From the NCBI GenBank assembly GCA_964016885.1, contig OZ024741.1, positions 230,640,001 to 230,704,000 on the forward strand: 64,000 bases of DNA, read 5' to 3'. The position numbers were made by a program, and so were the translations under genes. Numbering within the stretch: position 1 is the first letter of the stretch; each line of letters begins with the position of its first letter. Positions 6,815 to 60,999 of this stretch are shown here, piece by piece. This DNA is from Eledone cirrhosa. Its lineage: Eukaryota. The notes under the pieces were generated by a model. It saw nothing but the letters and a program-made list of their open reading frames with translations, ran no database searches and had not been told where the DNA came from.

Positions 6815-7029
<215 letters not shown>

Positions 7030-7736: not shown

Positions 7737-7774
<38 letters not shown>

Positions 7775-7781
<7 letters not shown>

Positions 7782-8180
7782 AGATCAAAAGATGGTTAAA
7801 GGAGTTCCATGTATTTTATTATGCGCATTTCAAAAACAAACATCATCATGCAATAATATTTGTGTTTTCATCAGATAAAACAGGAGAACATGATTTGAAG
7901 GCTAAAAAACACTTGTGGATAGTGCAGTTTAAATCAACATATCAACTGCACTATCCACAAGTGTTTTTAGCCTTCATATCATGTTCTCCTGTTTTATCTG
8001 ATGAAAACACAAATATTATTGCATGATGATGTTTGTTTTTGAAATGCGCATAATAAAATACATGGAACTCCTTTAACCATCTTCTGATCTTATATTATGC
8101 ATACTCCAGTCCTACAAACTGTAGAGTGTTTCTTATCCGATATCTGCATTGCTTTATTGTCTACAATAAAACTCACCTCC
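7775..8180. mobile_element. Palindromic HHR element: ~155-bp arms (7775-7929 / 7944-8097), 14-nt spacer, between (TA)n tracts
   Basis: Arms are near-perfect reverse complements and each carries the hammerhead core pointing outward. Sequence continues from the right arm to the (TA)n tract at ~8181. Confidence 0.85.
7989..8061 (+). ncRNA. Minimal type I hammerhead ribozyme motif (PLE type); mirror copy on - strand at ~7811-7883
   Basis: GTTTTAT|CTGATGA(7998-8004)|AAAC...GTTTTT|GAAA(8041-8044)|TGCGCA (palindromic stem III)|TA(8051-8052)|ATAAAAT (stem I partner). Confidence 0.75.
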
Positions 8181-8273
<93 letters not shown>

Positions 8274-13800: not shown

Positions 13801-16487
13801 GCTCTCTCAAGATAACAATTAGATTAGAATCCATAGCTTTTAGCAAAGAATTAGCTTTAGAAAAAGATAACCAGAGAGAGAACTGGTAGCCAAAGTAGAG
13901 GAGGCGCTTAGGAGTGGCAACGCCGCTAGGGTGCTAGCAACGAGAACGCCACTGGACCAGTTCTTCGATGCGAAACACGAAGGCTGCGTTGTCAGGAGTA
14001 GATCAAGTGATCTAGGAAACGACAGAGCAAAAGCTGCTAGCTGGGCCCGAGTGGCAGAAGCGAAAAGTGGCAACAAGTCCACGATTCGGTCTTTGAAAGA
14101 CCAAAACGGACGCGTGCTACTTGATACCAAGCAGATGTGTACGGCCTTTCAGCAGCACTTTGCGCAACTGTTCGGGCAGAGCGGTGCACCGAACGAGGCA
14201 ATGGACTTCGGTTCATACATCGACGGCCTACCGCGACTCTTGAGCATGGACGCGAGGTTCTGCGAAAGACCGATCACACCCGCTGAGATACAGGATGCTC
14301 TAGGCCGCTGCGGGAAACGCAAATCACCCGGTCTAGATGATCTACCATATGAGCTTTACATAGGCATGCCGGACTTGTTCTCTGGCGTCCTCAAAGCCGT
14401 CTACTGCAACTGGCAGCAGACCGGGAGAATTCATAGTTCTGTAGGAAGGGGCGTAGTCACGCTGATCAGGAAAGACGAGAGGAAAAGTGACGAAATAAGC
14501 AATATCAGGCCCATAACTCTCCTAAACACAGAGTTAAAGATTTTGGCCAAGGTGTTAGCAACGAGGCTGGCGCTTGTCGTCGAGAACCTGGTAGGAAAAG
14601 CACAAACGTGTGCAATCCCAACCAGACCCAAACACGACAACCTCCACCTCATGCGATACATCATAGAGAGGGTGGAGTCTGAACCCCGCTTTGGTGGGCT
14701 CTGATCAATTTAGATCAGTCTAAGGCAATTTGATAGGGTCAACCATCAATACTTGGAAGCGATGCTCAAGGCGGCCGGTTTCGGACTCGTCTTCAGAGGC
14801 TGGATCACAGCCATGCACACGAACATCTGCTCGACAGTCAAGGTGAACGGCTACCTATCGGCGCCGTTCCAAATCACGCGTTTCAGCCGACAGGGATGCC
14901 CTCTCTCCTCCATTCTGTACGTGCTGACTCTCGAGTCACTGCTGCGGAAGCTGTAGCATTTGCAGGGAATCCCTTTGGAACCGGGTCTGTGAAAGCGGCG
15001 TCGGCTTATGCCGACCATGTATCAATAATGGTGTCGAAAACCTCGAAAATCGGACGTACGGGAACTTACTGCAGGAATACGAAAGGCTTATATGAGCAAA
15101 GCTGAACCCGGACAAGTCGGTGGGCTTGAAGCTCGGCACCTGGAGAGGCAAGCCCATGCCGCCCGACAGCGTTGTGTGGCGCTGGATGGAAGGACCGGTG
15201 AAATTGCTGGTTCGGTCCGGACCTCCAGGTGTAGAAAAACTGAAACGAGGTCATGACCAAGGTATTTGCGCTCATCCAGAATTGGGCCGAGTGAAAACTA
15301 TCCTTGAAAGGTCGAGCGGAGGTAGCGAACACTTTCATAGTGTCCGTCATCTACTACCGCTTGACCGTCGTGTCTTGTCCCCGTGAAAACCTCACCCAAA
15401 TGGAACGCATGCTCTTCCAATTCTTTGGAAGAAGCAGGCTCCGCTGATGAGGAGATCCGTCTGCTGCCAGCATCCTTCCAGCGGAGGGCTGGGAATGCCG
15501 TGGCTGAGGATGCGCCAACACCCGCTGAGGCTACGGCATCTCCGGATATTCCTCACCGACCATCCGGTGTGGGCCCCGTTTGTGACACAAGGCTTTCCAC
15601 AACTTGTCTATCTGACGGAGCTGCAGTCCTGGGTCAAGCAGAGACAGAATAAAATGGGCGCCTGGCACATCGAATGAGATCAGGCGCTCACAGTCCTCTG
15701 TCAAGCGGGCACAGCAATCATTGGAGATTCACTTCATCATTCTATAGAGGGCTAGTACGGTACAAGTGCGGCGATGTTCTTGGAGAGACTCTGGGCGTCG
15801 AAGAACACGAGCTAACCAGTCTGTTCAGTAGGACTTTCCGCCCAGGACCTATGGACAACTTCCAAAAGTCCCTGGCCTGGTAGTGCTACCGAGGAGCTCT
15901 ACCAGTCCGCGACAATATCTACAGGCACGGATCCTTCAAAGAGGACGTGTCCAAGATGCGAGCGGGACATTGAAACCGTCCTGCACGCAATTGTACACTG
16001 CCCGGGCGTAACCAGCCTGTGGAACTGCGCAGAACAACTACTGTCGCGTGTGGGAAAAATCCAGTTGATAGCCGATCAAACCACCACCAACATTTAAAAA
16101 CGAAGGAGAGGCGGTTTTCCTCTGTATGGTGGCTATGGTGAAAGAGGTAATATGGTGGACAACGTTCTGAGGACTGAGGACAGATGCCTTTCTCTCCGGA
16201 TAACAGCTCATTCCCTTCTTTAGATACAACTTCAGAAGGAGAATCAGAGTGGAGAGAGAGGTACTGCACCCCAGTAAATTTACTGAACGGTGGGTGAATG
16301 TGGCGAGAATGGCCCGAGTGACCTCTAGTTTGAGGAAGAGAGCGAAAAGAAGAAAGGAGCACTTGCAAAACATGCTCCTGGAGTTGAGGGTCATTCTATC
16401 TACGGGGTATAAAACAACCCATTTGTAACGCCTTCCGCTATTGGGGATTTCAATTGTTAAATTATTATGTTAAATATTTTTACATGA

Positions 16488-17492
16488 ATATAAGTATGTA
16501 TACGTACATACATATATGTATACAGGCGTACAGTAGTATGTATATATATATACATACATGCACATATATATATGTACGTATGGATTTACCGAACATTTAT
16601 TATAATGCTCGGTGTGTTTGTAAACAAACATCCCGAATTAAGACGTACAGTGTCTAGCAACCATCGTTGCTCATTTGTTCAACCCTGACAAAGGAACGCT
16701 GTACTAGTTTCAAGCTTATTAGCTATGGTTAGCAACGTATACCTTCCTGCCAGATGATTGAACGTCTGAAAGTATATACTTTCCTTATGCATATTAACGG
16801 CTGAGCAGCCTAATTTGCATATCGAGTGAGTTAATTGGCCGGGGTGCCGAAAACGATAAACGGAAAAAATGAAACGAAATTTCATTTCTCACTCTTAAAT
16901 ATAAGTATGTATACGTACATACATATATGTATACAGACGTACAGTAGTATGTATATATATATATACATACATGCACACATATATATATGTACGTATGGAT
17001 TCACCGAACATTTATTATAATGCTCGGTTTGTTTGTAAACAAACATCCCGAATTAAGCCGTACAGTGTCTAGCAACCATCGGCCGATTAACTCACTCGAT
17101 ATGCAAATCAGGCTGCTCAGCCATTAATATGCATAAGGAAAGTATATACTTTCAGACGTTCAATCATCTGGCAGGAAGGTATACGTTGCTGACGATAGCT
17201 AATAAGCTTGAAACTAGTACAGCGTTCCTTTGTCAGGGTTGAACAAATGAGCAACGATGGTTGCTAGACACTGTACGGCTTAATTCGGGATGTTTGTTTA
17301 CAAACAAACCGAGCATTATAATAAATGTTCGGCGAATCCATACGTACATATATATATGTGTGCATGTATGTATATATATATATACATACTACTGTACGTC
17401 TGTATACATATATGTATGTACGTGTACATACTTATATTTAAGTAACAGCCGTACTAAGAGTGATGAATGAAATTTCGTTTCATTTTTCCGTT
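16488..17492. mobile_element. Non-coding ~430-bp-unit HHR element (retrozyme-like), ~1.4 units plus ~1 inverted unit, inserted in the LINE 3' UTR
   Basis: Unit start AATATAAGTATG at 16487 and 16898; inversion at ~17081; candidate TSD TATTTTTACA(T/A)GA at 16475-16487 / 17493-17505. Same family as 54907-56248. Confidence 0.88.
17158..17245 (+). ncRNA. Type I hammerhead ribozyme motif of the 430-bp family
   Basis: ACGTTG|CTGACGA(17189-17195)|T-AGCT-AATA-AGCT-T|GAAA(17210-17213)|CTAG|TA|CAGCGT. Stem I extends via AAGG/CCTT, CTGGCA/TGTCAG and GTTCAATC/GGTTGAAC. Confidence 0.78.
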
Positions 17493-17599
17493 TATTTTTA
17501 CAAGATTGTCTGTAAAATCTCCGCCATATGCCTGTGTATTGTCCCATATTCTTGTGAAACCTTGTGGCAAATAAAGGAATCAATCTATCTATCTATTTA

Positions 17600-21211: not shown

Positions 21212-21265
<54 letters not shown>

Positions 21266-21290
21266 ATATTAATAAATGGAAACTATATTT

Positions 21291-21382
21291 ATAAAACCAT
21301 ATTTATGTTATTATACATATTTCAAGGGCAACCAAGGCAAATTATGGTGCGCTTTCATCAGATAAAATACATATTTGTTTTA
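21291..21382 (-). ncRNA. Minimal type I HHR in PLE terminal repeat (left arm)
   Basis: Minus strand: ATATGTATTTTAT|CTGATGA|AAG..CTT|GAAA|TATGTA|TA|ATAACATAAATAT. Confidence 0.7.
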
Positions 21383-24300
21383 TAAATAAATCTTGACATA
21401 CCAGGAAAGAAATACAACCTTAACGGTTGGAGCTTCCTGGATAGTGGAGATATTACATTTATTGAGGGTAATACAAATTTATGAGTGAGTATGCAAATGA
21501 GTGTCCGAAAGGTTGAAATGATAACGGTTTATTTAAATTAAACTGTTGGAAGAAGGTGATATGTGAGTGATAGAGAACAGATAGAAAAAAGAAAAAAAGA
21601 AAAACAATAGAAAAAAGAAAAAAAGGAAGGAGAAAGATAGAAGAGGAAAGAAAGAACGATTATATATATTGATAGTGAAAATAGAGTGCACGAAGAGATA
21701 AATATAGACAGCGTAAGTATATCTAAAAGAGAGAAGAAATGAGAATAACGTGGAAGAATAATAGTTATAATGCAGGATTATTACGTTTTGATTATAATAC
21801 TTATAATGATAGGTTGAAAAATTAGATTAAAATTAAATTAAAATTAAAAATTAGAAATCAAAATTAAACATTAAAATTTACCTCAATATTAAAGATTTAA
21901 TTTAATAATTTAATATTAAAAATTAGTTTAAATGTTAAGGATTATAAATTATTTAAATAAATATATAGTATTTTACATTCGAGCAAAACTAATATAGTTT
22001 ATTTTATTAAAAGTTGTAAGTCAAAATTTAAACATCCAAATAATCCTAAATTTATGAAAAATTTACGAGAGTTTACAAAAGAATAACCTCTTAGTTATAA
22101 AAACAGTAAGGAAGTGTAAAGGAAGTTGGAAGTGATTTTTTTAAGAATAGTAAGGAAGTGTAAAGGAAGTTAGAAGTGATTTTTTAAGAACTCAGATGAC
22201 TCTAAGGATTAAATGTTATAAAGTTAAAAAGTTAAAAAATGTTTATCTTAAAAATATAATTAAAACATGAACCATATGTTAGTTTATACGAAGTCATAAA
22301 TTTACTTGCTATAAAGTTAAAACATTAACATTAAAAAAATTTATCTTAAGAATATATTTAAAGCATAAATCATAGGTTATTCCACATATATATAAAAAAC
22401 CTATATATAAAAATCACATGTTTTTCCACATATATATAAACATTTGGATATATATATTAAACACGTTTGGAGATATGAAAAATATAAAAATATAAAAATA
22501 TTGGAAGGTAAGAAAATAATGGTTTTTCTATATCTTTCAAAGGAATTTTCAAAAGATTTTTCCTTAAACCTTCCGTAAGTTTTTCAAGAAAAAAACTTTC
22601 TTAAAGGAGTTTCAAGCAGTCATATAAAAAAAATGTTATTATCTATCGATAGGTGTAATAATACAAAGTATATAGTATATATATGTGAAGTAGAGATATG
22701 AATCATATATAGATATAGAAGACATTATGTAAAAGAGATAAATCATATATTACATTTTATATATATATTTAAAAGTTGAGTTTAAACGATGTTTGCAGGA
22801 ACTGAATAAATTATTTCGCAAATTAATAGAGTTCTCACTATTTAGTATAAAGAATATTTCTTCAACACAAAGAGAACAATGTTGGGATAAAGCAGTGTAT
22901 GAAGGAACTTTGGAAATAATTTTCCAAAGTAAAGAATAGGTAATATTCTTGGGTTCCAGGTCCCATAATAAGTTAGATAGAGAAGTTGAAGATTTTTTAC
23001 CAATATTCGCAAAGGAACATTTATGGTTATTACAACGAGATTTGATGTCTGTGGAAGTAGCTGAATTAGTTAAATGTGTTTTCATTTGTTTTGACATTAC
23101 AATTATTATTTAGAGGACAGTTAGATTTATTTCTACAATTACATTTATCTGAGTTTATATTATTGGGAGCCGTAACATTATATTGGATATTGCTAGGAGT
23201 ATTAATGCTATTCTGGTTAGGTTTTAAGTTTCTATTATTAATTCTATTAATATTCTGCGCTAAATTCATACTGGTGGAATATGAGAGTTTAATAGTATGT
23301 CTATTAAAGATTGAGTAATACCTGTGTGTCTTAGGAGAGCACCTATCTAGAGATTTAAAGAATAATTTAGCAATAGGAGTTTTAATACTTAATGAGAAAG
23401 GGGGCGCGAACCATAATATATTTCTAGTTCTATGTTTTCTATTGCCTGCTCTACCTAACGCTTCGTTATAATATTGTGCCTTATCTTCAAATATATTTTT
23501 ATTCGCTGAAATTCTAGAAATACTTTGCTGTACAGAATTTACAATAGTGTTTTTAACGGATCTGGGGTGATTGGAATGAAAGTTAACATAGTTTAAATTC
23601 TCGTTTAATTTATGAAATGGACCATAAAGAGCAGTGTTCAGGTTTAAAGTTACATCTAAAAAATTAACTATTTCATAATTAATCTCTACTTCTACTTTAA
23701 GATTAACGCTATTAAAAAGTTGTATAATTTCTTTTCCTTTTATTTCACAATTATTATTATTTTCAATAAGTAATAGCATAACGTCACGATATAAACCACC
23801 GGTCATCTCCGGTATTTTACTATGTAAAGTATTGTTAATAAAAAGCCCCACAAGATCCGTTAATTGCGCCGAGTTCGATGATCCCATAGTCATATCGAAA
23901 TTGTTATCTCTGTCTGCTCTAGTCCAAAGGTGGTTGCTAAATTTAATTAATGTTTTACGTGCAGTTAAGATAATGTGCATTTCATTGCTAGTTAAATCTG
24001 TATATTTAAATGCAAAATTGTTCTCTTTGTGTAGAAGAAATATTCTTTACACCAAAAGTGAGAACTCTATTAATTTGCGAAATAATTTATTCAGTTCCTG
24101 CAAACATCGTTTAAACTCAACTTTTAAATATATATATAAAATGTAATATATGATTTATCTCTTTTACATAATGCCTTCTATATCTATATATGATTCATAT
24201 CTCTACTTCACATATATATACTATATACTTTATATTATTACACCTATCGATAGATAATAAAATTTTTTTATATGACTGCTTGAAACTCCTTTAAGAAAAC

Positions 24301-25504
24301 ATTTTTTCTTGAAAAACTTACGGAAGGTTTTAGGAAAAATCTTTTGAAAATTCCTTTGAAAGATATAGAAAAACCATTATTTTCACACCTTCCAATATTT
24401 TTATATTTTTTATATCTCCAAACGTGTTTAATATATATATCTAAATGTTTATATATATGTGGAAAAACATAGGATTTTTATATATAGGTTTTTTTTATAT
24501 ATATGTGGAATAACCTATGATTGATGCTTTAAATATATTCTTAAGATAAATTTTTTTAATGTTAATGTTTTAACTTTATAGCAAGTAAATTTATGACTTC
24601 GTATAAACTAACATATGGTTCATGTTTTAATTATATTTTTAAGATAAACATTTTTTAACTTTTTAACTTTATAACATTTAATCCTTAGAGTCATCTGAGT
24701 TCTTAAAAAATCACTTCTAACTTCCTTTACACTTCCTTACTATTCTTAAAAAAATCACTTCCAACTTCCTTTACACTTCCTTACTGTTTTTATAACTAAG
24801 AGGTTATTCTTTTGTAAACTCTCGTAAATTTTTCATAAATTTAGGATTATTTGGATGTTTAAATTTTGACTTACAACTTTTAATAAAATAAACTATATTA
24901 GTTTTGCTCGAATGTAAAATACTATATATTTATTTAAATAATTTATAATCCTTAACATTTAAACTAATTTTTAATATTAAAATATTAAATTAAATCTTTA
25001 ATATTAAGGTATATTTTAATGTTTAATTTTGATTTCTAATTTTTAATTTTAATTTAATTTTAATCTAATTTTTCAACCTATCATTATAAGTATTATAATG
25101 AAAACGTAATGAATCCTGCATTAATATTATTATCTTCCACCATATTCTCATTTCTTCTCTCTTTTAGATATACATACGCTGTCTATATTTATCTTTTCAT
25201 GCACTCTATTTTCACTATTAATATATATAATCGTTCTTTCTTTCCTTTTCTATCTTTTTCTTTCCTTTTTTGTTTTTACCTTTTTTTGTTTTTTTGTTTT
25301 TTCTCTTTCTTTCTCTCTCCCTCACATATCACCTTATTCCAACAGTTTAATTTAAATAAACCGTTATCTTTTCAACGTTTCGGACACTCATTTGCATACT
25401 CACTCATAATTTTGTATCACCCTCAATAAATGTAATATCTCCACTATCCAGGAAGCTCCAACCGTTAAGTTTGTCTTTTTTTCTGGGTAAGTCAATATTT
25501 ATTT

Positions 25505-25597
25505 ATAAAACAAATCTCTATTTTCCTGATGAAAGCGCACAGTAATTTGCCTTGGTTGCCCTTGAAATAAGTATAATAAAATAAATATGGTTTTATA
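25505..25597 (+). ncRNA. Minimal type I HHR in PLE terminal repeat (right arm, more diverged)
   Basis: CTGATGA 25526-25532, GAAA 25564-25567, TAAGTA, TA, ATAAAATA. Confidence 0.6.
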
Positions 25598-25694
25598 AAT
25601 ATAGTTTCCATTTATTAATATATTGTATATTTACTCCACTCACTGTTAAGTGCTTTCTATCAGTTATACACATTTTAAAATTAAATATAACCTC

Positions 25695-26724
<1,030 letters not shown>

Positions 26725-27182
26725 ATATATATATATATATATAAAATATATAGGTTTACATATCAGTTAAGAATAATCTTTTTCCAATTGAGTTTGTTTC
26801 CTGATGATTTCGAAACTCATTGATTTATCTATGATCGGATATTTCCAAAAAGCGAATGACACCTCCGGGGGTAAAAACATCATTTTGGTATGTTTATGTA
26901 CATTTTTTCTTCTAACTTTCATGTTGTACCTAATTGTGTATGGTTAACTATATGTCTAGTCAATTTCTACGGGCCTTTAGAAATACTAGGTAAATCTTCT
27001 GTGGCTGTGGATCGCGGATAAAATAGCTATCATTTATTCATCTATTGCTTCTTCATAGGTATATTTTTATCTTATAGCCTCGTCTAATTGATTTTTTATG
27101 TGGTTGATTATGCTGATTGGAGAAGAAATACTGTATATATTTTATGAAATGATTCTATGGATTTACTTTCTTATATATATAT

Positions 27183-29577
27183 ATAGGAGAAAGTATGACC
27201 CCGACGGCAGATCTCAAGCCGATTCGACGGCTATTTCTGGACTAAAGTAAGAGTTGTTTTAGTCTGGTAAATAAATAGCCGAACTCTTCAAGGGTTACTT
27301 CCTTATATGGGAAAATTTTAGTTGTCAAGAGGATTGGTCAAAATTTGTAGCAGACACAGAAATGTCTATCATTTCAGTTGGTGCAGGGTGGGGGTGGCTG
27401 AACTTGACTGTAGAGCAGGTCAAGCGTTGAAGGTGAAATCTGCATAGCAAATTCTAAGGAATGTGTATGATAGTAGGCAGGGGAGGTAGGCGAAAAAAGG
27501 TTGATTTAGAAAATGGAGTAAGGACGTTATAGAAAAGGTAAATCCAATGAGAATAGGGGACAAAGAAAAAATCTAATAAAAAATAATATAATAAAAAATG
27601 AGAGACAGATATATCAGAATGTGAGATTGGAAAGTGAGAAGTGAAATAAAACAAATGCTAAGGAGTTTATCACAGCTGCAATATTTTGTTGGTGCTGCTT
27701 TTTCGGCCAATGTTATAGAATGGGTTGCTAGATGAGAATTATTGAAAATTTAGAATTGGGTATTAAAAATTAATTCCATATCTCTGGGCCTAACACATCT
27801 GGTATGAATAGTTAATATAGCGTAATCGGCGAATGTTATCTGTAAGTTACTGGGGTGAGGGTACTGAGGCTAACGTGTCCCGATAGGCTGCCTCGGGGTA
27901 GGTGAAAGGAGGAAAAACAAAGGAAATGAAAGGGGGGGACATCTACCTATACAAGTTGGGGTTTTCCCTATCTTATTCAGCAAGTTGGTGTTTTAGCCCT
28001 TGTCTACCCACCCGGATCGTTAGGGGTTTTAGTGCGAGGTAAGTCTTCTGCAATCTGTGTTTGCATACAGTTACCAGTTCATCCTTTTTGTTTAGGAATT
28101 GATCCTTCGTAAACAGCATTTATAATGTTTCCTCTGAGCATAAGTTACATGGACGGCGTCCTCCCGTGTAAGAGTTAGCTCTGGACAGTAAGCTCCAAGT
28201 GGGATGGTAAGTTATATTATTATCTTGGAGGTCCCAGATATGGCTCGAAAGTGTGGTGGTATGTCGCCGGACTGGGTTCGGAACGTATGTCGGTGTTGGT
28301 AGAGCCTGGTCTTAAAGTCAGAAACGGTTAATCCTATATAAACTTTGTTGGAGGTGTCCGTCCTCACGTTGCACTGGCAGATCACGTTACGTTACCGGTA
28401 TCGATTATTGAGGGGGCACGTAGATCTATTAGGGCAGTTACACCTCCTGGTATGCTCTCCACTAATTTCTAGGTTGTTTCTTCCATAGGGGTTGAGTTTT
28501 TTGTTGTTTTGAGGAGACGATGTTTTGTGCGAAGTTAGGTGTGGTGCTGTAGGATAGTTTGATAGTGGTTTTGTTGATTATGTTGTGGTAGCTGCATGCA
28601 AACACAGATTGCGGAAGACATACTTCGCCCTCAAACCCCCTAACGATCCCGGCGGATAGACAAGGGATGAAACACCCCACTTGCTGAATAAGATAGGGAA
28701 AACCCCAACTTGTATAGGTAGATGTACCCCCTTTCATTTCCTCTATGTTTTCTTCTCCCCTTTGTCTCCTGCTATCACTTCTTTCCACCACCGAACTTCT
28801 TCTACGTTCGTTCCTCTGTATTTTTTGCTCCCCCTTTCGCCTACTCCGAGGCAGCCCATCGGGTCACTTTAGCCTCAGTACCGCCACCCCAGTAACTTAC
28901 AGATAGCATTCGCCGATTACGCTATATTAACTATTCATAGCAGCTGTGTTAGAGCCCAGAGATGTGGTATTAATTTTTAATACACAATTCTAAATTTTCA
29001 ATAATTCTCATCTAGCAACTCATTCTATAGCATTGGCCGAAAAAGCAGCACCAACTAAATATAGGAGCTGTGTTAGACTCCTTAGTATTTGTTTTATTTC
29101 ACTTCTCACTTTCCAATCTCACATTCTGTTATATATGTCTCTCATTTTTTATTACATTCTTTTTTATTATATTTTTTCTTTGTCCCCTATTCTCATTTGA
29201 TTTATCTTTTCTATAACGTCCCTCCTCCATTTTCTAAAGAAAGCTTTTTTCGCCTACTTCCCCTGGCCTACTTTCATACACATTCCTTAGAATTTGCCGT
29301 GTAGATTTCACCTTCAACACTTGACCGGCTCAACCCACTCCCCTATTGTTCTACAGGCAATTTCAGCCATCCCCACCCTGCACTCTCTGCCATGATAGAC
29401 TTTTCTGTGTCTGCTACAAATTTTGACCAATCCTCTTGACAACTACAATCTTCCCATATAAGGATGTACCCCTTGAAGAGTTCGGCTATTTATTTACCAG
29501 ACTAAAAAAACTCTTACTCCAGAAATAGCCGTCGATAACGGCTTGAGCTCTGCCGTCGGGGTCATACTTTCTCCTAT
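27183..29577 (-). mobile_element. Truncated Penelope-like element: GIY-YIG remnant (~28060-28600, -) between ~0.9-1.0-kb inverted repeats
   Basis: Minus frames give IKLSYSTTPN, CNCPNRSTCPL, NVICQC..KVYIGLT..FKTRLYQHRHTF, CNLCSEE. Arms are 27183-28076 / 28587-29577, with a degenerate HHR at each outer end. Confidence 0.85.
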
Positions 29578-38679: not shown

Positions 38680-39760
38680 ATGCCAGAGAAGCTGCAAAAG
38701 GAGAATGAAAGAGAAGAGCAGCTACAAGAATGACTCCAAAACAAAGAAATGTGACAGTAATATATAGAAATAATGAATCAGAAGAACAAAGATCAACATG
38801 GCTAGCTGATGATCTGACAAGGAACGCAACTTTACGTCAAGGGGAATGTGATGTATGAAATTACATCACATAACAGAGAGGATTATAAGATGCACAAAGA
38901 TCAGCAAGGCTTCAGCAAAAAGGAATAAGAGTGAATAGATGGGATAGATCAGAGGAACAAAGATAAAAAATGCTTCCAGAAGATAGGACAATGGAAGCAA
39001 ATATTCGCCAAAGGGAATCAGAGGTATGAAAATCATTGGGACAGCAAATGGAGAGATATAGAACATCTCAAAAGTAGCATGAAGTAACTGATGCTCAAAA
39101 AACTCAAAGGCTCTGTGAAGAGAGAGTAAGAACAGAAGATTAACGATTGAAAAAGGTTGCCGAGTGGAACGTTGTTTCTTTTAGTTACAATCCACATCAA
39201 TACAATGAATTAGACACTTTAATTCGAATTTCCTCAATGAACAAAATTTGTCCAAATTGTGGTACTAAAATATGGAATGGTGCCTCAACTGGTTTATGCA
39301 GTTCAAGTGGAAAGAACAAGTTGAAACTACTACCTGAATCTCAAGAACCCTTAAGGGCACTTCTGATTGGTACAACTACTGTATCAAGACACATCCTTCA
39401 AAATATCCAGGAGTACAGTAATGCGTTCCAAATGACAAAATTTAGAGCAGACGTCATCCAAGAATGTGATATTATACCCAATTTGAAAATGAAAGGAAAA
39501 ACGTACCAGAGTATTGGACCACTTCAGAGACATTTAGAAGAAGAACCATATTTACATCTGTATTTCATCAGTGATAATAAAACCCAGGCACAGGCAAGAT
39601 ACAAAAGAAATAAAGAAATTAGTATGTAATCATATTGCGACTAAAAGATATGTTACACGAAAGAAACACATGTATTAGATGTTTCAAATATACTCTAGAA
39701 AAGGCTGTGAATGAAATCTCATTATATTTTCTTTAACCCAACCAATGCCATGTACTTCTA

Positions 39761-39763
<3 letters not shown>
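38680..39763 (+). mobile_element. Helitron Rep/helicase N-terminal remnant
   Basis: ICPNCG..GLCSSSGK..LPESQEPLRALL..QNIQEYSNAFQMT..KGKTYQSIGPL..LHLYF resembles the conserved region upstream of the Helitron Rep domain. Confidence 0.75.
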
Positions 39764-39844
<81 letters not shown>

Positions 39845-40038
39845 TAGAAGTACATGGCATTGGTTGGGTTAAAGAAAATATAATGAGATTTCATTCACAG
39901 CCTTTTCTAGAGTATATTTGAAACATCTAATACATGTGTTTCTTTCGTGTAACATATCTTTTAGTCGCAATATGATTACATACTAATTTCTTTATTTCTT
40001 TTGTATCTTGCCTGTGCCTGGGTTTTATTATCACTGAT
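39567..40038. repeat. ~197-bp inverted duplication centred on a (TA)n tract
   Basis: 39567-39763 is the reverse complement of 39842-40038 (identical by eye); the spacer is pure (TA)n. Confidence 0.93.
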
Positions 40039-48899: not shown

Positions 48900-51800
48900 A
48901 TAAACCAGCGATCTAGCGGAGAGTGAAACAACCCTTTACGGGGTGCTGTATTCTGCAAAATTTACTTGGGAAAAATGTTTTCGTTCAAACATGGATACCT
49001 CAAAAGAGGGAGAAAGAGAGAGAGCGTTATCAGACAACACAAAGAGAGGAGGAGTTTGTCAATATGTTAACATGTCCTTTTTAATGATATTGTTTCAGAT
49101 TAAAAAAATCCAAATAGTACTGACACAAACAACTCCAGCAATAACACCAAATACAACACAATCAATAACAAGAGCAACAACGAAAATAACAGCGATAAGA
49201 TCGAGAATTATAATGACAATAACAATAACAACCACAACAATAACAGTAGGAATAGTATCAACGAAAACAACAATAATAACAACAGCCACAACAACCGTAA
49301 CAGTAGCCACAGTATCAACGAAAACTTCAAAAATAACAACATAAATAACAGTAACAACGAGCCCAGCACCAACAACAAGACCAGTAGCAGCAGTAGCGGC
49401 AGTACTAATGGTATCGCTGAAAAAAAGGCCACTTCTTTTGCAGGTGTAGCCCGAAATATAGAGGCAGCACTAATCATGGATGAGGAGATGGCAGTCGCGA
49501 GGGCCATGGTGACTAGAAATTCCAATCGTGTCTCCCTAAAACCTCCACCCGTTTTTTCAAGGACCAGCTGTTACGGACGGTGACTTAAGCAAAATATCAC
49601 ATCGGGTGGAGAGAGCCACGGAGGCTCAAATTCAAAAGGGATTGGGGTGCGTCTGGGCACGCAAAACCCACATCACCCGAGGAAAAAAGTATGTCACAGT
49701 AGACGTACCTTTTGCCTCCCCACAAGAGACGAAGTCTCACTCCTTGGTAAACCTAAAGAGTGTAGATAGTTTTGGTGCCCTCCTACTGCGGTCAGAAAAT
49801 TGTGGGTTCAAATTGACCGAGGTACTTCCCGACGTGCCCATAACATGGTTGGCCGCGTCTGTCCTTGCTGGAATCGAGGACAAAACGACGTCACTGCAAG
49901 TACGGAGGATATCGAGGGAGAACTGGTCAGGTATAGAAATACAAATGTTAATACAAACTGACCAGGAGTGTATTGAGGTTATCACAGACATTATTGACTT
50001 TGAGGAAGGCGTCTAACTCCCTATAAGCATGGAAGGAAGTCGCCCAAATTGCTATCTTTGTGAATCAAAGGGTCACGTCAGGGTCTTTTGCCCGCAGAAC
50101 ACAGCCAAAACGAAGGCCCACCCCCTCCTTCCGACGCCTGGTCCGCTGCTACCAGGAGCAGGGCAGGCCACAGAGGCGGCAGACCTTTCCACGGTGAGTA
50201 GGAGGGCAACGTCTGTGGCACCCATACCAAGGCCATGGACAGCTAAATCAGCGGCAGCAGTGGCGGCAACACCAGTAGCTACATTTGCAATAGCTACGCC
50301 AGTGACAAAATCGTCGGAGCTGTCTACACTACCACCAACATCAGCCGTAGAGCTCATATCCCACCCAGACCCCATGGAATCCGACATGGAGTGGCAAAAT
50401 TTCTGCAACAAAAAAAGAAAGAACCCGTTAGCTTCGCCCTCCAAAAGGGAGGGCAAACAAAGAGGGGTAAAGGCTGGCTGCAATGCGACTTGCAACACCA
50501 CCACCGTCACCATCACAAGCATCATCTCCCAAAACAACCACCATACCACCAGCATCACCACAAACACCAACATCGCAAACACAACAAGGCACACATACCC
50601 CAAAACAGCAACAAGTAAACAGCCCCCCCCCCAAAAAAAAAAATACACAGCCATAAACGTGGCAAATAAAGAATTCATACGATATATAAAGCAGCACACA
50701 GCATTACAGAAAAAATTACTACACCCAACCAATACCAAGAACATTACCAAATATATAAACATTGTCGAAATTAAACTGGAGCATTATAAATATTTAAAAC
50801 AAAAATTCCCTAAAGCAGTTGGAGACTTCAGAGGGTCGTTTACCAAGAGAATATACATGGACATTATCTTGGAGACACCCATGACCAGCAAAAGGGATGA
50901 TCGACTCTCCTCCCTTTCCAACACGATCAGGGTAGGTGATCCTTTCTCACTTACTCCATTCCTCACCCAACATGACCTTACTTAGAATAGGCAGTATAAA
51001 TGTACGTGGCCAGAGGTTATCTTGGAAGCAGGGCCACCTGCTTAATGACCTCAGTTCACTAAACATAGATGTTGTGGCCATCAGTGAGACCAGAATTTCC
51101 GAAGTACGAGACTCCGCACCGATCTCCGGCAGCTACGATGTATAGGCATCACCGAGACGTCCAGGGTCGAGGGCGGAGTTGCTGTGCGTTTTCGGAGAGG
51201 CTTGGATCTCGCCATACGGGCCATCTCCCTGGACTCAGAAAGTAAGTCGGTGGTGCTGGACGTGACAGGCAGCGAAGGCAATGCTTTCAGTCTAGTAGCC
51301 GTCTACGCCCCAACAGTGACAGGACGGCGAGATTTCTTCAGGCGTCTAGAGAACTTTCTGGGAACGTCTCACTCTTTAGTGGTGATAGTGGGTATCTTAG
51401 ATTCACGCTGGGATTATGTGGGGCTAGTAAATAAGGGAGGAGGATATACAAGCTTCACCAACTTGCTCAGACGCTTTCAACTGTCTGACAGATATTGACT
51501 GGATTATCAGAATGTGCCAATGTGGACATGGGCAAACCACATCGGGTCATTCAGATCGTATCTTGATAGGGTAAAAGATAGGGCTACTGTAGGTGGTCCA
51601 CAATTTAAAGTAGTCGATTACGCGGACCACAAATTTGTGATCTGTAAAGTCGACTTAGATAGACTTCAGAGGCAAAGACCCAGTTACTGGAAGCTGAACG
51701 CTTAGTTCCCGTCGTGCAATGCTTACAGAGATCGGATAAGCGAATTAGTTAAGCGTGCTTTGAATGGTGCGATCGTCAACAACAGGTGGTGGTTTACCTT

Positions 51801-54545
51801 GAAAAGGGAAATTAGAGTAGTATCGATAAGGTTTAGCAAAGGAGTAGTGATAGAGGAAAATAGAGTAGAAAGAGAGCTAGTTAGAAAGCTAGAAGAGGCG
51901 TAGAATAGGCATCGCAACCGATATGCTTGCGGCGAAATTGGTACTTCAACGCAAAACACGCAGGCTGCGGTGTCAGCGCTAGAGCGCTTGCTCTGAGACA
52001 CGAGGGGACAACAGCCGTCCAATGGTCCCAGATGGTAGAGGCGCGACGTGGCAACAAAGTCACAATTCAGTCTTTGCCTGACCAAAACGGGCGCACGTTA
52101 CTTGAACCCGAACAGATGTGTGAGGCTTTTCAGCAGCACTTTGTTCAACTGTTTGGGAGCAGCGGCGGGCCGCATCGGTGTAAGAACTTCAGTGCATACC
52201 TCTAAGGACTGCTGCAGCTCTCGCCGACCACGGCACAGTATTGTGAAAAGCCGATCATAGCAAATCAAATATGGCAAGCGATGTCATGCTGGATAAGTGG
52301 TAAATGACCAGGTTTAGATGGTCGGCCCTTACAGCTTTATGCGTACGTGAGAGGCTTGTTCGGCGACCTCTTGGCAGATGTATATTGCAACTGGCAGCAG
52401 AACGGGAGCATTTCCAGTCTTATGAGCCGGCGAGCAGTGGCGCTGTTGAGAAAAGATCCGAAAAAGGGGACGTTAGGGACAACTTCGGGCCCATAACTTT
52501 GCTAAACGCAGATTTCAATATTTTGGCCAAGGTATTAGCAACGAGATTGATGTTTGTCATCGGTAAACTGGTGGGAGAGATGCAGACATGTGCCATTCCA
52601 GACAGATCTATCCACGACAACATCCGCGTTATGCGATAGATAATAGAGAGGGTTGTTAAGGCACCTGGCACGGGTGGACCTCTGATCAATTTGGATCAAT
52701 TTTAGGCATTTGATAGGGTCGAGCATCGGTACCTGGTTGCGGTCCTTGAGGCGGCCGGTTTCGGCCCTGTTTTCAGGGGTTGGATCACTGCGATGCACAG
52801 AGACATCTGCTCAGTTATGAGGGTGAACGGTCACCTGTCACAGCCGTTCAGCATCATGCGCTCAGTCCGCCAGGGTTGAACCCTCTCGTCTCTCATGTAT
52901 GTATTGGATAACGAGCCATTACTGCACACATTGGAGGCAATGAGAGGCGTCCCACGCGAACTGGGATGTGGGAGATCCGTATCGGCTTACGCCAACGACG
53001 TCACCGTGGTGGTGTCAAGCACCCGACATGTCCAGTGGCTCGCCACCACTGTCAAGTTATATGAAGCAGTGACAGGAGCTAAGTTAACCACGAAAAGTTG
53101 GTGGGCTTTCAGTCGGCACCTGGGGAGGCAAGTCCATGCCGACCCGTAGCGTCATGGGGGGATGGACTGAAGGACCGGTTAAATTGCTCGGGGTCTGTTT
53201 CGGTCTGGACCAGGTGGAGAAAAAATGGAGCGGGGTTGACGAGCAGGGTGGCCTCTCTCACCCAGATATGGGCGCAGAGGAAGCTATTCCTGAAAGGTCG
53301 GGCGTAGGTGGCGAACGCGTACATCGCGTCCGTCATCCACTACCGTCTGACAGTCGTGCCTTGTCCTAACACTCGCCTGACTGTGTTGGAGCGTTTGCCC
53401 TTTCGCTTTTTGTGGAAGGTACGCATTCCAATGGTCAGGTGGTCCGTTTTATGCCAACACCCACCACGTAGAGGGTTGAGCATGTTGTGACTGATGATAC
53501 GCAAACATGCGCACAGGCTACGGCATCTCCACCTCTTACTCAACGGTGATCAGGTGGGGTTACCATTTGCTAGACACGTATTTTCCCAGCTCGACTCCTT
53601 GACAGAGCTGCTGTCATGAGTCAAGCGAAGACCGAGCGGGAGTGCTTGGAAACTGCAATGTCTTCAGGCGTTTACAAACCTCGACCAATCGCGCAATGCG
53701 ATCGGTGGAAACTCCACATTGGCGTTCTACAGAGGGCTAGTGGAGGGAAAGATGACGACGTCGATGGGGAGACTCCGATCGACGAAAATCAACTAGCCAA
53801 TCTCTTCGGGAGAACATTCGAGCCGTGGCCCATGGACAACCAATAATCCCTGGCCTGGGAATGCTACCGAGGAGCTTTGCCAGTTCGGGATAAAATCTAC
53901 AGCCATGAAAGTGACGTCAGCCAAGCCTGTCCGAGATGCGCGCAGGTCGACGAAACCGACCTCCACGCACTCGTCCAGTTTTCGACCATTGCTGACTTGT
54001 GTGTTTATGTCGAACATCTACTGTCGCGTGTAGGGTGGATCCGGCTATCAGCTGAGTCCATCGTGAGGATTGCCCCGCCATCTTCATTTAGCCAGGAAGG
54101 GCAGCCAGTTTTTATCGGCCTGACGGCCATGGCCAAAGAGGTCATGCGGTGGACGCGTTTGAAAGGGGTGAAGACGAGCAATTACCTCTTCGGTAGTGCC
54201 CTGATTAACTTTTCAAATTTCATTAGAAAAGGAAAATCAGGGTAGAGAGGGAAGTGATCTCTTCCCAGCAATTTGTTGAAAGATGGGTGAGAGAAGCAAG
54301 CATGGCCCGAGTGAATGGGCCTGTTCCGAGTATTCGCCTGTAAATTGAAGGTGGAAAACTGGGAGAGGGCACTTGCCCTGGTGGTCAGGGTCACTGTGAC
54401 TATTTAATGAGTTTTCTCCACGTGTGTCCCTCGGAAATCTCCCCGCTATTGGGGAATTTTGCTTTGTTTCTATTTGGTCATTTTCTTTTTTTTTTTTTAC
54501 ACGCAGACATTTCCATTTGTACCGTCCTATACCGTCCTGTGCTGT
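48900..54545 (+). mobile_element. Second L1/Tx1-clade LINE, degenerate (ORF1 with CCHC knuckle; ORF2 from ~50972)
   Basis: CYLCESKGHVRVFCP; LRIGSINVRG, AISET, LVAVYAP, YLDRV, ADHKFV, YWKLN, PITLLNADFNILAKVL, AYANDV, CPRC..H. Shares the 3' motif CCGCTATTGGGGA with the first LINE. 5' boundary approximate. Confidence 0.9.
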
Positions 54546-54804
54546 CCTAATAGGTGGGCAGACTAAGTATACTTAGTCTTCTCACCTATATTGTATCCTG
54601 TTAAGTGTTCAAGTAACGGCAATATATTTGTTTTAACGTTTCTATGCTCCGATGAATCCAGACATATATCTAGATGAAATGATCGAAAGCTATTAGATGT
54701 TTTAAACACAATTTGATTGTTATTATGTTATATATGTATATATGAACCTAATAACTAACAACTTTCGTAATTGTACCCCTTAGTGTTATTATTTACTTTT
54801 CCAG

Positions 54805-54906
<102 letters not shown>

Positions 54907-56248
54907 GTATGCATACGTACATACATACATGTATACAGACGTACAGTAGTATGTATATATATATACATACATGCACACACACACATATATATGTACGTAT
55001 GGATTTACCGAACATTTATTATAATGCTCGGTGTGTTTTTAAACAAACATTCCGAATTAAGCCGTAGTGTCTAGCAACCATCGTTGCTCGTTTGTTCAAC
55101 ACTAACAAAGGAACGATGTACTAGTTTCAAACTTATTAGCTATCGGCAGCACCGTATACCTTCCTGCGAGATGATTGAACGTCTGAAAGTATATACTTTC
55201 CTAATGCATATTAACGGCTGAGCAGCCTAATTTGCATATCGAGTGAGTTAATCGGCCGGGCGCACCGAAAACGATAAATGGAAAAAATGAAACGAAATTT
55301 CATTTCTCACTCTTAGTACGGCTATTACTTAAATATAAGTATGTATAGTTACATACATATATGTATACAGACGTACAGTAGTATATATATATATATATAT
55401 ATACATACATGCACACACATATATATATGTACGTATGGATTTACCGAACATTTATTATAATGCTCGGTTTGGTTGTAAACAAACATCCCGAATTAAGCCG
55501 TACATCGTTGCCCTTTTGTTCAACACCGCTTATTAGTACATCGTTCCTTTGTCAGTGTTGAACAAAAGGGCAACAATGGTTGCTAAACACTGTACGGCTT
55601 AATTCGGGATGTTTGTTTACAAACAAACCGAGCATCATAATAAATGTTCGGTAAATCCATACGTACATATATATATATATGTGTGCATATATATATATAT
55701 ATACATACTACTGTACGTATGTATACATATATGTATGTACGTATACATACTTATGTTTAAGTAACAGCCGTACCAAGAGTGAGAAATGATATTTCGTTTC
55801 ATTTTTTCCATTTATCGTTTTCGGTGCGCCCGGCCGATTAACTCTACTCGATATGCAAATTAGGCTGCTCAGCCGTTAATATGCATAAAGAAAGTATGTA
55901 CTTTCAGACGTTCAATCATCTGGCAGGAAGGTATACGGTGCTGACGATAGCTAATAAGCTTGAAACTAGTACATCGTTCCTTTGTCAGTGTTGAACAAAA
56001 GGGCAACGATAGTTGCTAAACACTGTACGGCTTAATTAGGGATGTTGTTTACAAACAAACCGAGCATTATAATAAATGTTCGGTAAACCCATACGTACAT
56101 ATATATATGTGTGCATGTATGTACATATATATATATACATACTACTGTACGTCTGTATACATATATGTATGTACGTATACATACTTATATTTATGTAACA
56201 GTCGTACCAAGAGTGAGAAATGAAATATCGTTTCATTTCTTCCATTTA
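54907..56248. mobile_element. Second insertion of the ~430-bp HHR element (~1.4 units plus ~1.6 inverted units) between (TA)n tracts
   Basis: ACGTACAGTAGT at 54939 and ~55370; inversion junction ~55504-55535; homologous to 16488-17492. Confidence 0.9.
55910..55996 (+). ncRNA. Type I HHR motif of the 430-bp family
   Basis: ACGGTG|CTGACGA(55941-55947)|TAGCTAATAAGCTT|GAAA|CTAG|TA(55970-55971)|CATCGT. Confidence 0.78.
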
Positions 56249-56600
56249 TATATATATATATATATATTAAAATAACAGATTAAAGTTTAAGAAAAGAATC
56301 GCTGCTTTCACCCTTAACGGGATCTTCTGAAACTAACAAAGTCAATCTGTAAACGCAGAACTGGATATTTCAAAAAAACGTTGCAACCGGAGGAAGACAG
56401 GAAGACGATACTTTGGTTCGTGGTAACGTTCGCTGGCAAAGAACGGGAAAAAACGAATAATACGTCATTAATAGGAGCGATGAAAAACAATTACGCGCAA
56501 AGACAAAACCACGTTTTGCTCTACGGTTCTTATATATTTGATATATATTTTCCTTATCGAGCCCTCTTTGGATTTTAGTCTTCAATTTTATTATTATTAC

Positions 56601-57351: not shown

Positions 57352-57486
57352 AATGTGAAGAGGGAAAGTTTGGTGATTATTGTAAAAAAACCTGTCATTG
57401 TATGAACAATAAATACTGTAATGGCTTAAATGGATTTTGTGCAGATGGATGTGCTGATGGTTATCGTGGAGACTCTTGCCAAGATG
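57352..57486 (+). CDS. Host gene exon: EGF-like repeat
   Basis: TTTGCAG|..G|GTATAT, 135 nt; ECEEGKFGDYCKKTCHCMNNKYCNGLNGFCADGCADGYRGDSCQD. Confidence 0.9.
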
Positions 57487-60088
57487 GTATATTACAAGCT
57501 TACTATGTATAAACTTTATAATTATATTAATTATTTATTTATTCTTCTTTTCCTGATGACCAAGTGTTAAAGCTGGTGTATTAGTGCACTAACCCCTATG
57601 ATTCTTACACTTAATTCAGCCTCCTGAAAATGTCGTCAGGATACTTTTGCCTTTGAACCTGCTTAAGTGCAGCTTCACTCACATGTAGAATACATTGTGG
57701 AAGCTTTCATGAAAGGACGACTGTCTCGGTGTTAGTAGAAACTATTTTAACACCTTCCGTGCAGACAATGAATAGAATTCTTTTCAGGTCATATCAGAAA
57801 TCACCTTCCAACGAATGAAGTAGAACCATAAACTCTACAAACTCCAGTCGACTGTTCCTTCACCCACCACTTTGATACAATTTTCAACCCGACTGTGTAT
57901 ATCAGTTCTGTTCATGAATGAACTCATATTGAATGGTTTTGACTTAGTATCATTTATCCGAACACAGAAACTGGGACATTCATCGAAACTTCGACAATTC
58001 CTTTGCAACGCTGTGTTATGCTTTTTCGAGATCAACGAAAAAAGCTTATAACACTTGGTAATGTTGCCACGATTTCACGAAGACCTGTGAATATCTGTTT
58101 TGCTCTGAAGGCAGTGTCCATGATTTGAATCACACTGTTCGTCAATTATCTTGGACTGGATAACACAGCGTTGACCAGTTATAAGAGGACATTTGCATAC
58201 AGTTAGTAAAATTCGTGTTTTTCATGAAATAAGGGCTTCATTTGAAAACAAAATTGCGTGGAATTTTATTAGACTCTATTTAATGAATCCGTCGTTTGCA
58301 ATCGATGACGGCTTCAATACAGTTTTTGTAACTTTGGCATGCACGAATCATATGATCCCTAGTTTTGCGATTTTGATAGATATGACGGACTACAGAGATT
58401 GTATAGTGTTATGGGGCGTTAATTTACTTACCTCTCATCCTATATATGGTATTCCAAAGGATTTAAGATTAGGGTACATACTTTTTCTGATTATTCATTC
58501 TTGAGACATCTATCTTCATATGAAACGGCTGAGAGACTTGTGTGTAGATATACGACGTTCCTTTGCTTACGCGTTTTTGCGTTTGTTCCAAGATCTCACA
58601 ACATTCTCCAACTCATTCTTGTATTTCGCAACATTGAACCTTAACTCCTTTGGAAAGAAGTAAGGAGGTGTGACATCTCCCTCGCCTCTATGTCTCTCAG
58701 AAACAACAGGGTTGCTGGAAACCTTCTGCACTTGACTGTTTGAAGACCTTTATCCAACCTGTCCATCTATCTCTCATTGACATATTGGTCGTCATTAAAG
58801 ATATTCTCAGAGAAAAATCTAAGATTTCAGGGTATGGATGTTTCGACTTGATAAATAAGCGCTGATCAGATTGTTTTGTTTTTCAAGTCATGCATTTGGA
58901 TTTCCGTTTCACATAGAAAATAGGTCATCATTCACAATTCTATCGCTACTTGTCGTGGAAGCCTATACTATTTAGCAACAGCACTAATTCATATTTTTGG
59001 TTATTTTCGTTAAGTTACTACTTCTTTCGTACAGATCTGTGTGTTCTAGTTGTACTGGGATACGTAGCCGGCATTTTCTGTTTGGCTATCCTGAAGAACC
59101 CTGAGAGAAGTGGTGACAGTACGCACCCTTGACAGATTCCGAAAACCAAACTATCCAGACTATAATTATGAGGTGGGATGTGTAGGTGCAAAATCTAAAT
59201 ATATGTGCTCGTGAGTTGCTGCCATCATGGTTACACGAGTTGTTATTATAATGAAATATTGTTCAATCTGACTCTCCTTCTATATATTTATAATTCGTTT
59301 TTGAATTTGTTTTGCGAGATTTCTTATCTGAAAACGTGTGTTTAATCATGGTCTTTGTTTTGTGTATCTGTCCTTTGTCCTGTCCTACATCATTTTGACA
59401 CAACACAAAAACAAGATGGTGCAAGACAGAACAAAGAAGAGACACACAAAAGAAAAAGCTAGTTATTGAAGGGGTCACAGAAGGTTTGAAATATATAAAC
59501 AATATTCCGGTTATCGAACCAATCACGCAGCCGGAAATTTATAATAAATTGAAGTGAAAACCAACAGGTGCGTGTGTTTATATTGGCAACATAACCCCCC
59601 CCCCCCCCCCCAGTATAACAATATATACATATATATATTTATAAATGTAGTCTGAATTTTTCGAATATTAATAATAATATTCTATTCGTTTGCAATTACG
59701 CAAACAACCTCCTTTAAAGCCATGTCAGTAGAATGACACCTTCATTCTTACTCTTGTGTTTGCTGAAAACATAACTGCAGACACTAATGTTCTCTGTGAT
59801 TAATCTTCATCAATACAGTATAATGCTTACCTGCCAACTGTCAGAGCTAGTTTTAAAATATATATTTTATTTTATTAAATGTATATATATTTATATATAT
59901 ATATATATAGTATAACTGAACAAAAATGAAAAACGAACACAGACATATACATGTATGCGTTCAAATCGTAATGGACCAGAAACGTTAAGGTGAAAAAATA
60001 CTAACTACAGACAATAGGGTTTGCTTGATTCAATTTAAGAATAAATCAAGGAAAATAAAATACAAATCAGTATTGTCGTAACTACCCA

Positions 60089-60171
60089 TCACCCGGACGG
60101 TTTTTGATGGAACCGTTTCGCAATATTAATTGTGAAGAGGTACATCAAATGCTTAGCTCATCAGCGGGTGA
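60089..60171 (-). ncRNA. Type I hammerhead ribozyme motif with canonical core
   Basis: Minus: TCACCCG|CTGATGA|GC..GC|GAAA|CGGTT-ccatcaaa-AACCG|TC|CGGGTGA; 7-bp perfect stem I. Confidence 0.88.
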
Positions 60172-60610
60172 AGAATTAGTATCAGATCACTTCTAAATAA
60201 AATAAAGATCTGGATAGTGTGTGTATATGTAACGCACATGGTTTCCGAACTTAGCGCGCCGCGCAGACTCACGTCACTAAAAATAGCAGCATGGTCTATG
60301 CGACATTTGAATTAGCTCTACGAATTAACGGAGCCGAATATATCAAAAGCATGTATTGAGTTAGAAACTCAAAATAGTCTCATTACAGTAAAATTAGCTC
60401 TAGGAAAAAGGTTTTTCCGAGCCGTATAGTATAACTGAACAAAAAAGAAAAACGAACACAGACATATACATGTATACGTTCAAATCGTAATGGTCCAGAA
60501 ACGCTAAGGTGAAAAAAATAATGTAACTACAGACAATAGGGTTTGCTAGACTCAATTTAAGAATAAATCAAGAAAAATAAATACAAACCAGTATTGTGGT
60601 AACTACCCAA

Positions 60611-60691
60611 CACCCGGACGGTTTTTGATGGAACCGTTTCGCAATATTAATTGTGAAGAGGTATATCAAATTCTTAGCTCATCAGCGGGTG
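60611..60691 (-). ncRNA. Type I hammerhead ribozyme motif with canonical core (tandem copy)
   Basis: Same core and stems, 521 nt from the first copy. Confidence 0.88.
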
Positions 60692-60999
60692 AAGAATTAG
60701 AAACCCTATTGTCTGTAGTTAGTATTTCTTTTTCACCTTAGCATTTCTGGTCCATTATGATTTGAACGCATAATGGTAAATGTCTGTGTTCGTTTTTCTT
60801 TTTTGGTCAGTTATAATATACGGCTCGGAAAAACCTTTTTCCTAGAGCTAATTTTACTGTAATGAGACTATTTTGAGTGTCTAAGTTATCGTTATAGGTA
60901 ATCCAGTTAGAGGTTGTGAATACTCTGTATTGTGGATAGTTTTAACCTACGACTTTGTTTGACTCAACAAGATGTTTCCATAGTTAGGTAGCGAGTTCG

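Follow-up and report, generated by a model that had tools for sequence, protein, structure and literature searches.

Two-armed insertions of a predicted hammerhead retrozyme family with two fixed ends and a Penelope-type footprint

Within the window, i.e. the whole stretch of 64,000 nucleotides of Eledone cirrhosa DNA analysed here, self-comparison revealed two inverted structures that belong to one repeat family, at 16487–17495 and 54901–56249. Judged by their sequence, both are well supported as copies of a non-coding family of the non-LTR retrozyme type, with a hammerhead motif in each unit of ~434 nt. Throughout the family, the outer ends of insertions cluster at two fixed sites, and we consider it probable (roughly 0.8) that a Penelope-like enzyme acting in trans made both the two-armed layout and the ends.

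Structure of the insertions and their repeat unit

The insertion at 17 kb measures 1,009 bp and that at 55 kb measures 1,349 bp, each consisting of two arms placed head to head (Table 1); the 430 bp given as insertion length in the original prediction is rather that of the repeat unit (~434 nt). Unit positions are numbered here from the predicted cleavage site, which the start of the 55-kb right arm (position 430) adjoins. Since the hammerhead strand is directed outward in both insertions, their outer ends correspond to RNA-3' ends. The inner junctions differ, as had been noted before, joining positions 36 and 294 at 17 kb, but 17 and 430, with a 7-nt spacer, at 55 kb. The hammerhead core of the left arm is mutated in both cases, and the stem I pair state is identical between the two arms within each insertion. 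In the intact motif of the 55-kb right arm, the core segments CTGACGA and GAAA, stem II and a palindromic stem III region (ACTAGT) are all present, and the predicted cut falls after 55971. The 55-kb left arm is a mosaic, in which a ribozyme of the G·U type and matching upstream markers are combined with U·G-subfamily markers at +29 to +87. Loci L258 and L263 contain mosaics of this kind as well, pointing to template switching or conversion between subfamilies. The 17-kb insertion is hosted by the 3' end of a dispersed LINE-like repeat.

Table 1. Coordinates of the two insertions, their hammerhead motifs and their targets (positions in the window)
Feature	Position	Strand	Details
Left arm, 17-kb insertion	16487..17081	-	outer end site A, position 220; inner end position 36
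Hammerhead motif copy, 17-kb left arm	16696..16738	-	mutated core CTAACCA; stem I U·G type
Right arm, 17-kb insertion	17080..17495	+	position 294 to site B, 278
Intact type I hammerhead motif (predicted), 17-kb right arm	17183..17225	+	stem I ACGTTG/CAGCGT
Target-site duplication, left copy, 17-kb insertion	16475..16487	+	13 bp
Target-site duplication, right copy, 17-kb insertion	17493..17505	+	12/13 identical
(TA)n target left of 55-kb insertion	54864..54900	.	
Left arm, 55-kb insertion	54901..55526	-	~1.45 units; outer RNA-3' end site A, position 219; inner end position 17
Hammerhead motif copy, 55-kb left arm	55113..55155	-	mutated core CTGCCGA; stem I G·U type
Inner head-to-head junction, 55-kb insertion	55527..55533	.	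7-nt spacer
Right arm, 55-kb insertion	55534..56249	+	~1.65 units; position 430 to site B, position 278
Intact type I hammerhead motif (predicted), 55-kb right arm	55935..55977	+	stem I ACGGTG/CATCGT
(AT)n target right of 55-kb insertion	56250..56267	.	

The unit is repeated in tandem with a period of ~434 nt, is low in GC and holds one type I hammerhead motif, which reads stem I, CTGACGA, stem II, GAAA, palindromic ACTAGT and stem I'. Exact matches to a 31-nt core number 10,046 in the 3.0-Gb genome (control: 0), some of them in arrays, and the family includes a deletion subfamily. No ORF of at least 150 aa lies over either insertion, and the element is non-coding. The family hence shows what is expected of a non-LTR retrozyme, namely short, tandem, non-coding, low-GC units in many copies, each with a putative hammerhead made up of the core and three helices; having no ORF, it does not carry the RT plus GIY-YIG frame of an autonomous Penelope-like element (PLE). 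Rfam returned 0 matches for the whole window at gathering score, and the 140 matches obtained for 54800–56400 at E up to 10 were mostly to miRNA models on TA repeats, with no hammerhead family among them. In folding predictions, the isolated motif was no better than its shuffles (z -0.5 to -1.5) and its G·U form favoured another fold, while the region downstream of the cut folded at z of about -3.

Selection on the predicted hammerhead fold

A double change in stem I between the two insertions (ACGTTG/CAGCGT at 17183–17225, ACGGTG/CATCGT at 55935–55977) had originally been taken as a sign that the fold was under selection in the source lineages. The swap and the preserved pairing are as described, and the broader claim held, with the within-family swap being one event and the covariation lying at 10 of 14 pairs in a comparison across families. 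The earlier two-state picture had to be corrected by a third common state at the swapped pair, A-U. We assessed covariation by a pair count with shuffles plus a tree, mainly in Set U, i.e. the first 100 core matches on contig C1 (0–42.5 Mb), forming 86 loci of which 80 remained after removal of 6 overlapping ones. This set needs an intact core but introduces no bias as to stem I state or end position; two extra sets of 30 loci each, the best matches to each window copy, are subfamily-biased. Among 124 third stem I pairs in Set U, there were 68 U·G, 32 A-U, 13 G·U, 4 C-G and 2 U-A, with 5 unpaired, and the remaining five stem I pairs had a single consensus state each.

When the two paired columns were masked, the U·G copies grouped as one clade in a tree of 176 copies, in which G·U and A-U interleaved. 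The U·G/G·U double change is thus a single branch event, and G·U is one transition away from A-U. The swap marks subfamilies. Strong differences between the U·G and G·U consensuses were found at 6 of 243 sites, two of them being the pair partners, and by a rough, post hoc estimate the chance of two of six changes striking both sides of one of ten pairs is ~0.005. Taken alone, the swap is thus suggestive of covariation within the family, and of an ordinary hammerhead kind. In a genome-wide count of exact 43-nt motifs that covered the U·G, U·U and G·G states, the mispaired forms were rare (4,217 U·G, 142 U·U, 45 G·G). U·U loci (n = 25) had a U·G-type background in 16 cases, a G·U/A-U-type background in 8 and a mixed one in 1, the corresponding numbers for 25 G·G loci being 9, 14 and 2. 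Given that both mispaired forms arose on both backgrounds, neither expanded as a lineage, and we rejected U·U and G·G as expanded intermediates.

A hammerhead pattern free of pairing requirements identified 39,508 further motifs in the genome (control: 120), including families 66–90% alike to the ~434-nt unit and a 310/311-nt family with no likeness detected outside the motif. Across 10 family representatives, which were picked by hand and whose kinship inflates the counts such that the figures are not probabilities, 89% of cells pair and 10 of 14 pairs change on both sides, spanning all three helices; 0 of 500 shuffles attained the covariation score, and slid registers paired in 23–44%. It is mainly this covariation across related families that supports selection on the predicted fold in the source lineages. 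Among 7 variable paired columns located downstream of the cut, 4 retain the pair through a one-sided change and 3 break or delete it. Genomic copies presumably decay, with selection on the fold acting on source copies only.

Two fixed insertion ends, one of each

Both insertions terminate on the right at unit position 278 (17495 and 56249; ..CC(G/A)TTTAT), and their left ends agree to 1 nt (position 220 at 16487, position 219 at 54901). These shared termini had been remarked upon in the original prediction, together with a proposal to draw a histogram of end positions across the genome. The 86 insertions of Set U provided 122 outer RNA-3' ends, of which 50 fell into an interval at site A, 54 into an interval at site B and 18 elsewhere, so the distribution, with 104 of 122 ends at two sites, is not uniform. 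The two intervals make up 35 of the 434 positions (binomial P 6e-94), and merely 1 of 50 outer 5' ends in Set U lay within them (Fisher's test against 5' ends, P 1e-26). At site B, 45 of 54 ends are located exactly at 278. The aligner overruns site A into (TA)n, yet junction prints place it at ~219 and thus 59 nt from site B. Exact B junctions with (AT)n number 4,952 genome-wide, and read-throughs 4,075.

The two sites are used in combination. Among 36 two-armed insertions of Set U, 25 were A/B, 0 A/A and 0 B/B, while 11 had one end elsewhere; 25 A/B pairings out of 25 correspond to P 6e-8, and the result is an inverted copy with a tail at one end, as expected from two RT start sites. The biased sets (n = 34) yielded 19 A/B, 0 B/B and 12 other insertions, besides 3 A/A cases at compound or ambiguous loci, and loci chosen on their B junction added further A/B cases and no B/B.

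Inner ends, by contrast with these outer ones, are scattered. Positions 17 and 430 at 55 kb had suggested that they coincide with the ribozyme cut, which was rejected upon finding 3 of 86 there against ~5 expected. The arms run through the ribozyme site, and this fits a circular and an uncut multimer template alike. 'Simple' copies ending near 120–128 may be short palindromes whose arms were merged by the internal hairpin of the unit. Of 29 opposite-arm pairs, 24 had the same pair state and 4 shared rare variants (2% at random), lending weak support to one template for both arms; as the 55-kb arms differ in subfamily markers, one template molecule fails for some insertions.

Tandem arrays, mosaic units and a stem I swap that occurred once on the tree would also be in keeping with a satellite that spread at the DNA level by recombination and fold-back, the swap then being a chance lineage marker. 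However, such a process conflicts with fixed polar ends, target duplications and dispersal over thousands of sites, as well as with covariation in all three helices across families. The end histogram largely refutes it, and we regard it as very improbable.

Target sites and the role of annealing

Of the anchored ends, 39 of 50 at site B and 28 of 40 at site A are followed by (AT)n, a further 14 ends having failed to anchor. This corresponds to the AT-rich or microsatellite targets expected of a PLE-mobilised element. Duplications in non-repeat targets span 11–16 bp and hence, when present, exceed 4 bp as in retrozymes. Duplications of 10–14 exact bases were called in 4 of 37 A/B insertions that could be anchored (a further 9 could not), most of the remaining A/B insertions sitting in (TA)n, where duplications cannot be read; those of loci L024, L075 and L082 measure 11–14 bp. 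For the 17-kb insertion, 19 empty paralogues of the host repeat contain the target site once, which fixes the duplication at 13 bp. Its overlap with the element amounts to 1 nt at site A and 3 nt at site B, where the first 3 nt of the right copy coincide with the final 3 nt of the site.

The original prediction had priming occur at preferred AU-rich points that anneal to TA targets. Preferred start points in TA targets were indeed found, whereas annealing as the cause of site choice is but partly supported. If TA-rich target DNA set the ends by annealing to AU-rich points of the RNA, it would be understandable that sites A and B both end in AT in phase with the target, that duplications reach a few bases into the element ends, and that both sites are predicted to be single-stranded, with long TA runs partly paired. 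Besides, junctions of A-273 copies are shifted by 2 nt more often than those of G-273 copies, in about 23% versus 6% (143 and 178 shifted, 3,176 unshifted, with the share of A taken from 15 of the first 100 rows). An absolute form of this rule, suggested by a sample (10/33 versus 0/36), was rejected upon genome counts that show the shift in G copies too, and later microsatellite slippage could equally account for it. Against annealing as the cause, the unit contains alternating AT runs of 13 and 10 nt, compared with 5 and 3 at sites A and B, yet these long runs account for at most 3 of 122 ends. Site B overlaps the target by only 3 nt and site A by at most 5 nt, the overlap at the 17-kb A junction being a single nucleotide. 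The end position is unchanged in a subfamily carrying C at 217, and annealing alone leaves the use of one A and one B per insertion unexplained. We therefore consider it unlikely that annealing sets the ends; position-defined site choice, with short pairing as a helper, is the better reading.

A probable role of a Penelope-like enzyme acting in trans

A Penelope protein cuts and extends both DNA strands at AT-rich sites, and in vitro its RT initiates, without homology, at two fixed positions within the RNA; the genomic tail is the span between these start sites (Frangieh 2024, PMC11167929). PLE insertions form an inverted copy with a tail at one end and a bias for microsatellites (Craig 2021, PMC8557442), accompanied by duplications of 8–10 bp (Arkhipova 2013, PMC3846280). 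In the mechanism we propose for the retrozyme family, a Penelope-like enzyme would make staggered nicks in AT-rich DNA, and each freed DNA 3' end would serve as primer for reverse transcription from one of two sites within the RNA. These start sites would be set mainly by the RNA-protein complex, helped by 1–5 nt of pairing. Both cDNAs would then grow past the ribozyme site in the direction of the RNA 5' end, on a template that is circular or an uncut multimer, stop at scattered points and be joined head to head.

RT-coding Penelope-like copies in the genome display the same two-end layout, with one short and one long end in (TA)n, and the hammerhead on their ORF strand fixes the polarity. The ~434-nt unit was absent from 20 of 20 PLE RT loci of one PLE family, and none of 27 loci of one PLE family had a pLTR homologous to it; in ten-kb PLE loci, 3 of 7 held the unit, solely as separate short copies. 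A helper search starting from the PLE RT of the window retrieved many genomic copies, but the hammerhead at their ends is a different one and nothing links these ends to the ~434-nt unit. Site B and the PLE end region have an 11-nt motif in common, which we rejected as a shared start site on account of its offset, as it lies 12–15 nt before the PLE's own short end.

Inverted insertions with duplications are likewise produced by L1-type twin priming (PMC2837659), and LINE-like RT fragments lie near both insertions, so a LINE enzyme might have generated the arms. Against this, the element has no poly(A) or simple-repeat tail of its own, the two arms have hundreds of bases of sequence in common, the inner end of the B arm is not tied to site A and both ends are fixed, which leaves twin priming a very improbable source.

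As for the Penelope-like enzyme, it is conceivable, if tentative, that it acts as a dimer on one circular RNA and leads each end of a staggered DNA break to a different fixed start site. If so, each two-armed insertion would record one A and one B start, and the family would provide a natural readout of this step at genome scale and, with its 434-nt unit, a minimal substrate on which Penelope transposition could be reconstituted. The one-A-one-B rule makes a sharp prediction of how the two RT start sites seen in vitro serve the two DNA strands, one that could be tested with the unit RNA as substrate. Mobilisation of retrozymes by PLEs has been proposed before (PMC7229834; preprint 10.64898/2026.07.22.740005), being argued in the available parts of these sources from co-occurrence and pLTR kinship; insertion ends constitute a more direct, mechanistic type of evidence.

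Other elements in the window and the genome

A Penelope-like element at 21254–25633 contains an RT frame on the minus strand (23066–24046) and 1.6-kb inverted arms. A hammerhead motif of its own is present at each end, at 21361 on the minus and at 25526 on the plus strand; of its two ends in (TA)n, one is short and the other long, and exact matches to the end motif number 29,544 in the genome. At 7774–8200 lies a small element, likewise two-armed, which has a different hammerhead-like motif, one short and one long end in (TA)n, and relatives in many sampled loci. An array of a ~320-bp unit extends over 3–6820, and a two-armed copy of this unit at 25698–26763 adjoins (TA)n; the strict hammerhead pattern gave no match to the ~320-bp unit at either location. 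Further inverted-repeat structures were observed at 27183–29577, 39567–40038 and 59906–60884, one of which is a perfect 472-bp palindrome.

The stretches 13152–15997 and 51165–53977 are related LINE-like elements (66% alike, with a weak RVT_1 match), each located a few hundred bases upstream of one retrozyme insertion. A broken frame at 17900–18700 includes a GIY-YIG-like stretch, which we take to be a fragment of another Penelope-like element. At 57352–57486, an exon-like stretch codes for a cysteine-rich repeat, presumably EGF-like; the 55-kb insertion may consequently lie in an intron. Elsewhere in the genome, other hammerhead families (loci L147–L176 and those of the pairing-free list) keep a palindromic helix III hexamer, ACTAGT, ACGCGT or ACATGT, as would be expected if these families cleave as dimers.

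Comparison with known systems

The family resembles metazoan non-LTR retrozymes (Cervera and de la Pena 2020, PMC7229834) in its non-coding, tandem unit of a few hundred nt with low GC, in having one type I hammerhead per unit and thousands of copies, and in its duplications of more than 4 bp and co-occurrence with PLEs; the same likenesses apply to the retrozymes of Li, Clavereau and Pollet (2026, 10.64898/2026.07.22.740005). Its unit of 434 nt is slightly above the 170–400 nt given for the 2020 retrozymes (PMC7229834). Two-armed insertions with two fixed ends occur here, whereas the available parts of both sources (PMC7229834, 10.64898/2026.07.22.740005) contain no description of them for known retrozymes. 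Expression, circles and cleavage have been demonstrated for some known retrozyme families, while the present one is known from sequence. A look-up of sequencing runs listed no RNA run with the family, an outcome that is neutral as to its expression as linear and circular RNA. Descriptions of cephalopod-type retrozymes were not found in the full-text literature searched, the coverage of which is incomplete.

The predicted ribozyme shares with the canonical metazoan type I hammerhead (Cervera and de la Pena 2014, PMC4209133) a 6-bp helix I, a 4-bp helix II and a short helix III with a palindromic loop, a form that acts as a dimer there. The palindrome is retained across families (ACTAGT, ACGCGT), as in dimeric hammerheads (PMC4209133). 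The predicted ribozyme differs from the canonical type I motif by a U·U at the base of helix II, as in axolotl HHR_Amex2 (PMC7229834), and has no Rfam match.

With Penelope-like elements, in turn, the family has in common the head-to-head inverted copy, the extension at one end and two RT start sites (PMC11167929, PMC8557442), as well as AT-rich or (TA)n targets, short duplications and a hammerhead upstream of the start sites. The tail comprises 59 nt here and 30–40 nt in Penelope-like elements; unlike in coding PLEs, there is no ORF, and the start sites lie 219 and 278 nt after the cut. Taken together, it is well supported that the family is a predicted self-cutting retrozyme with a Penelope-type footprint, and as such an addition to a known class of elements.
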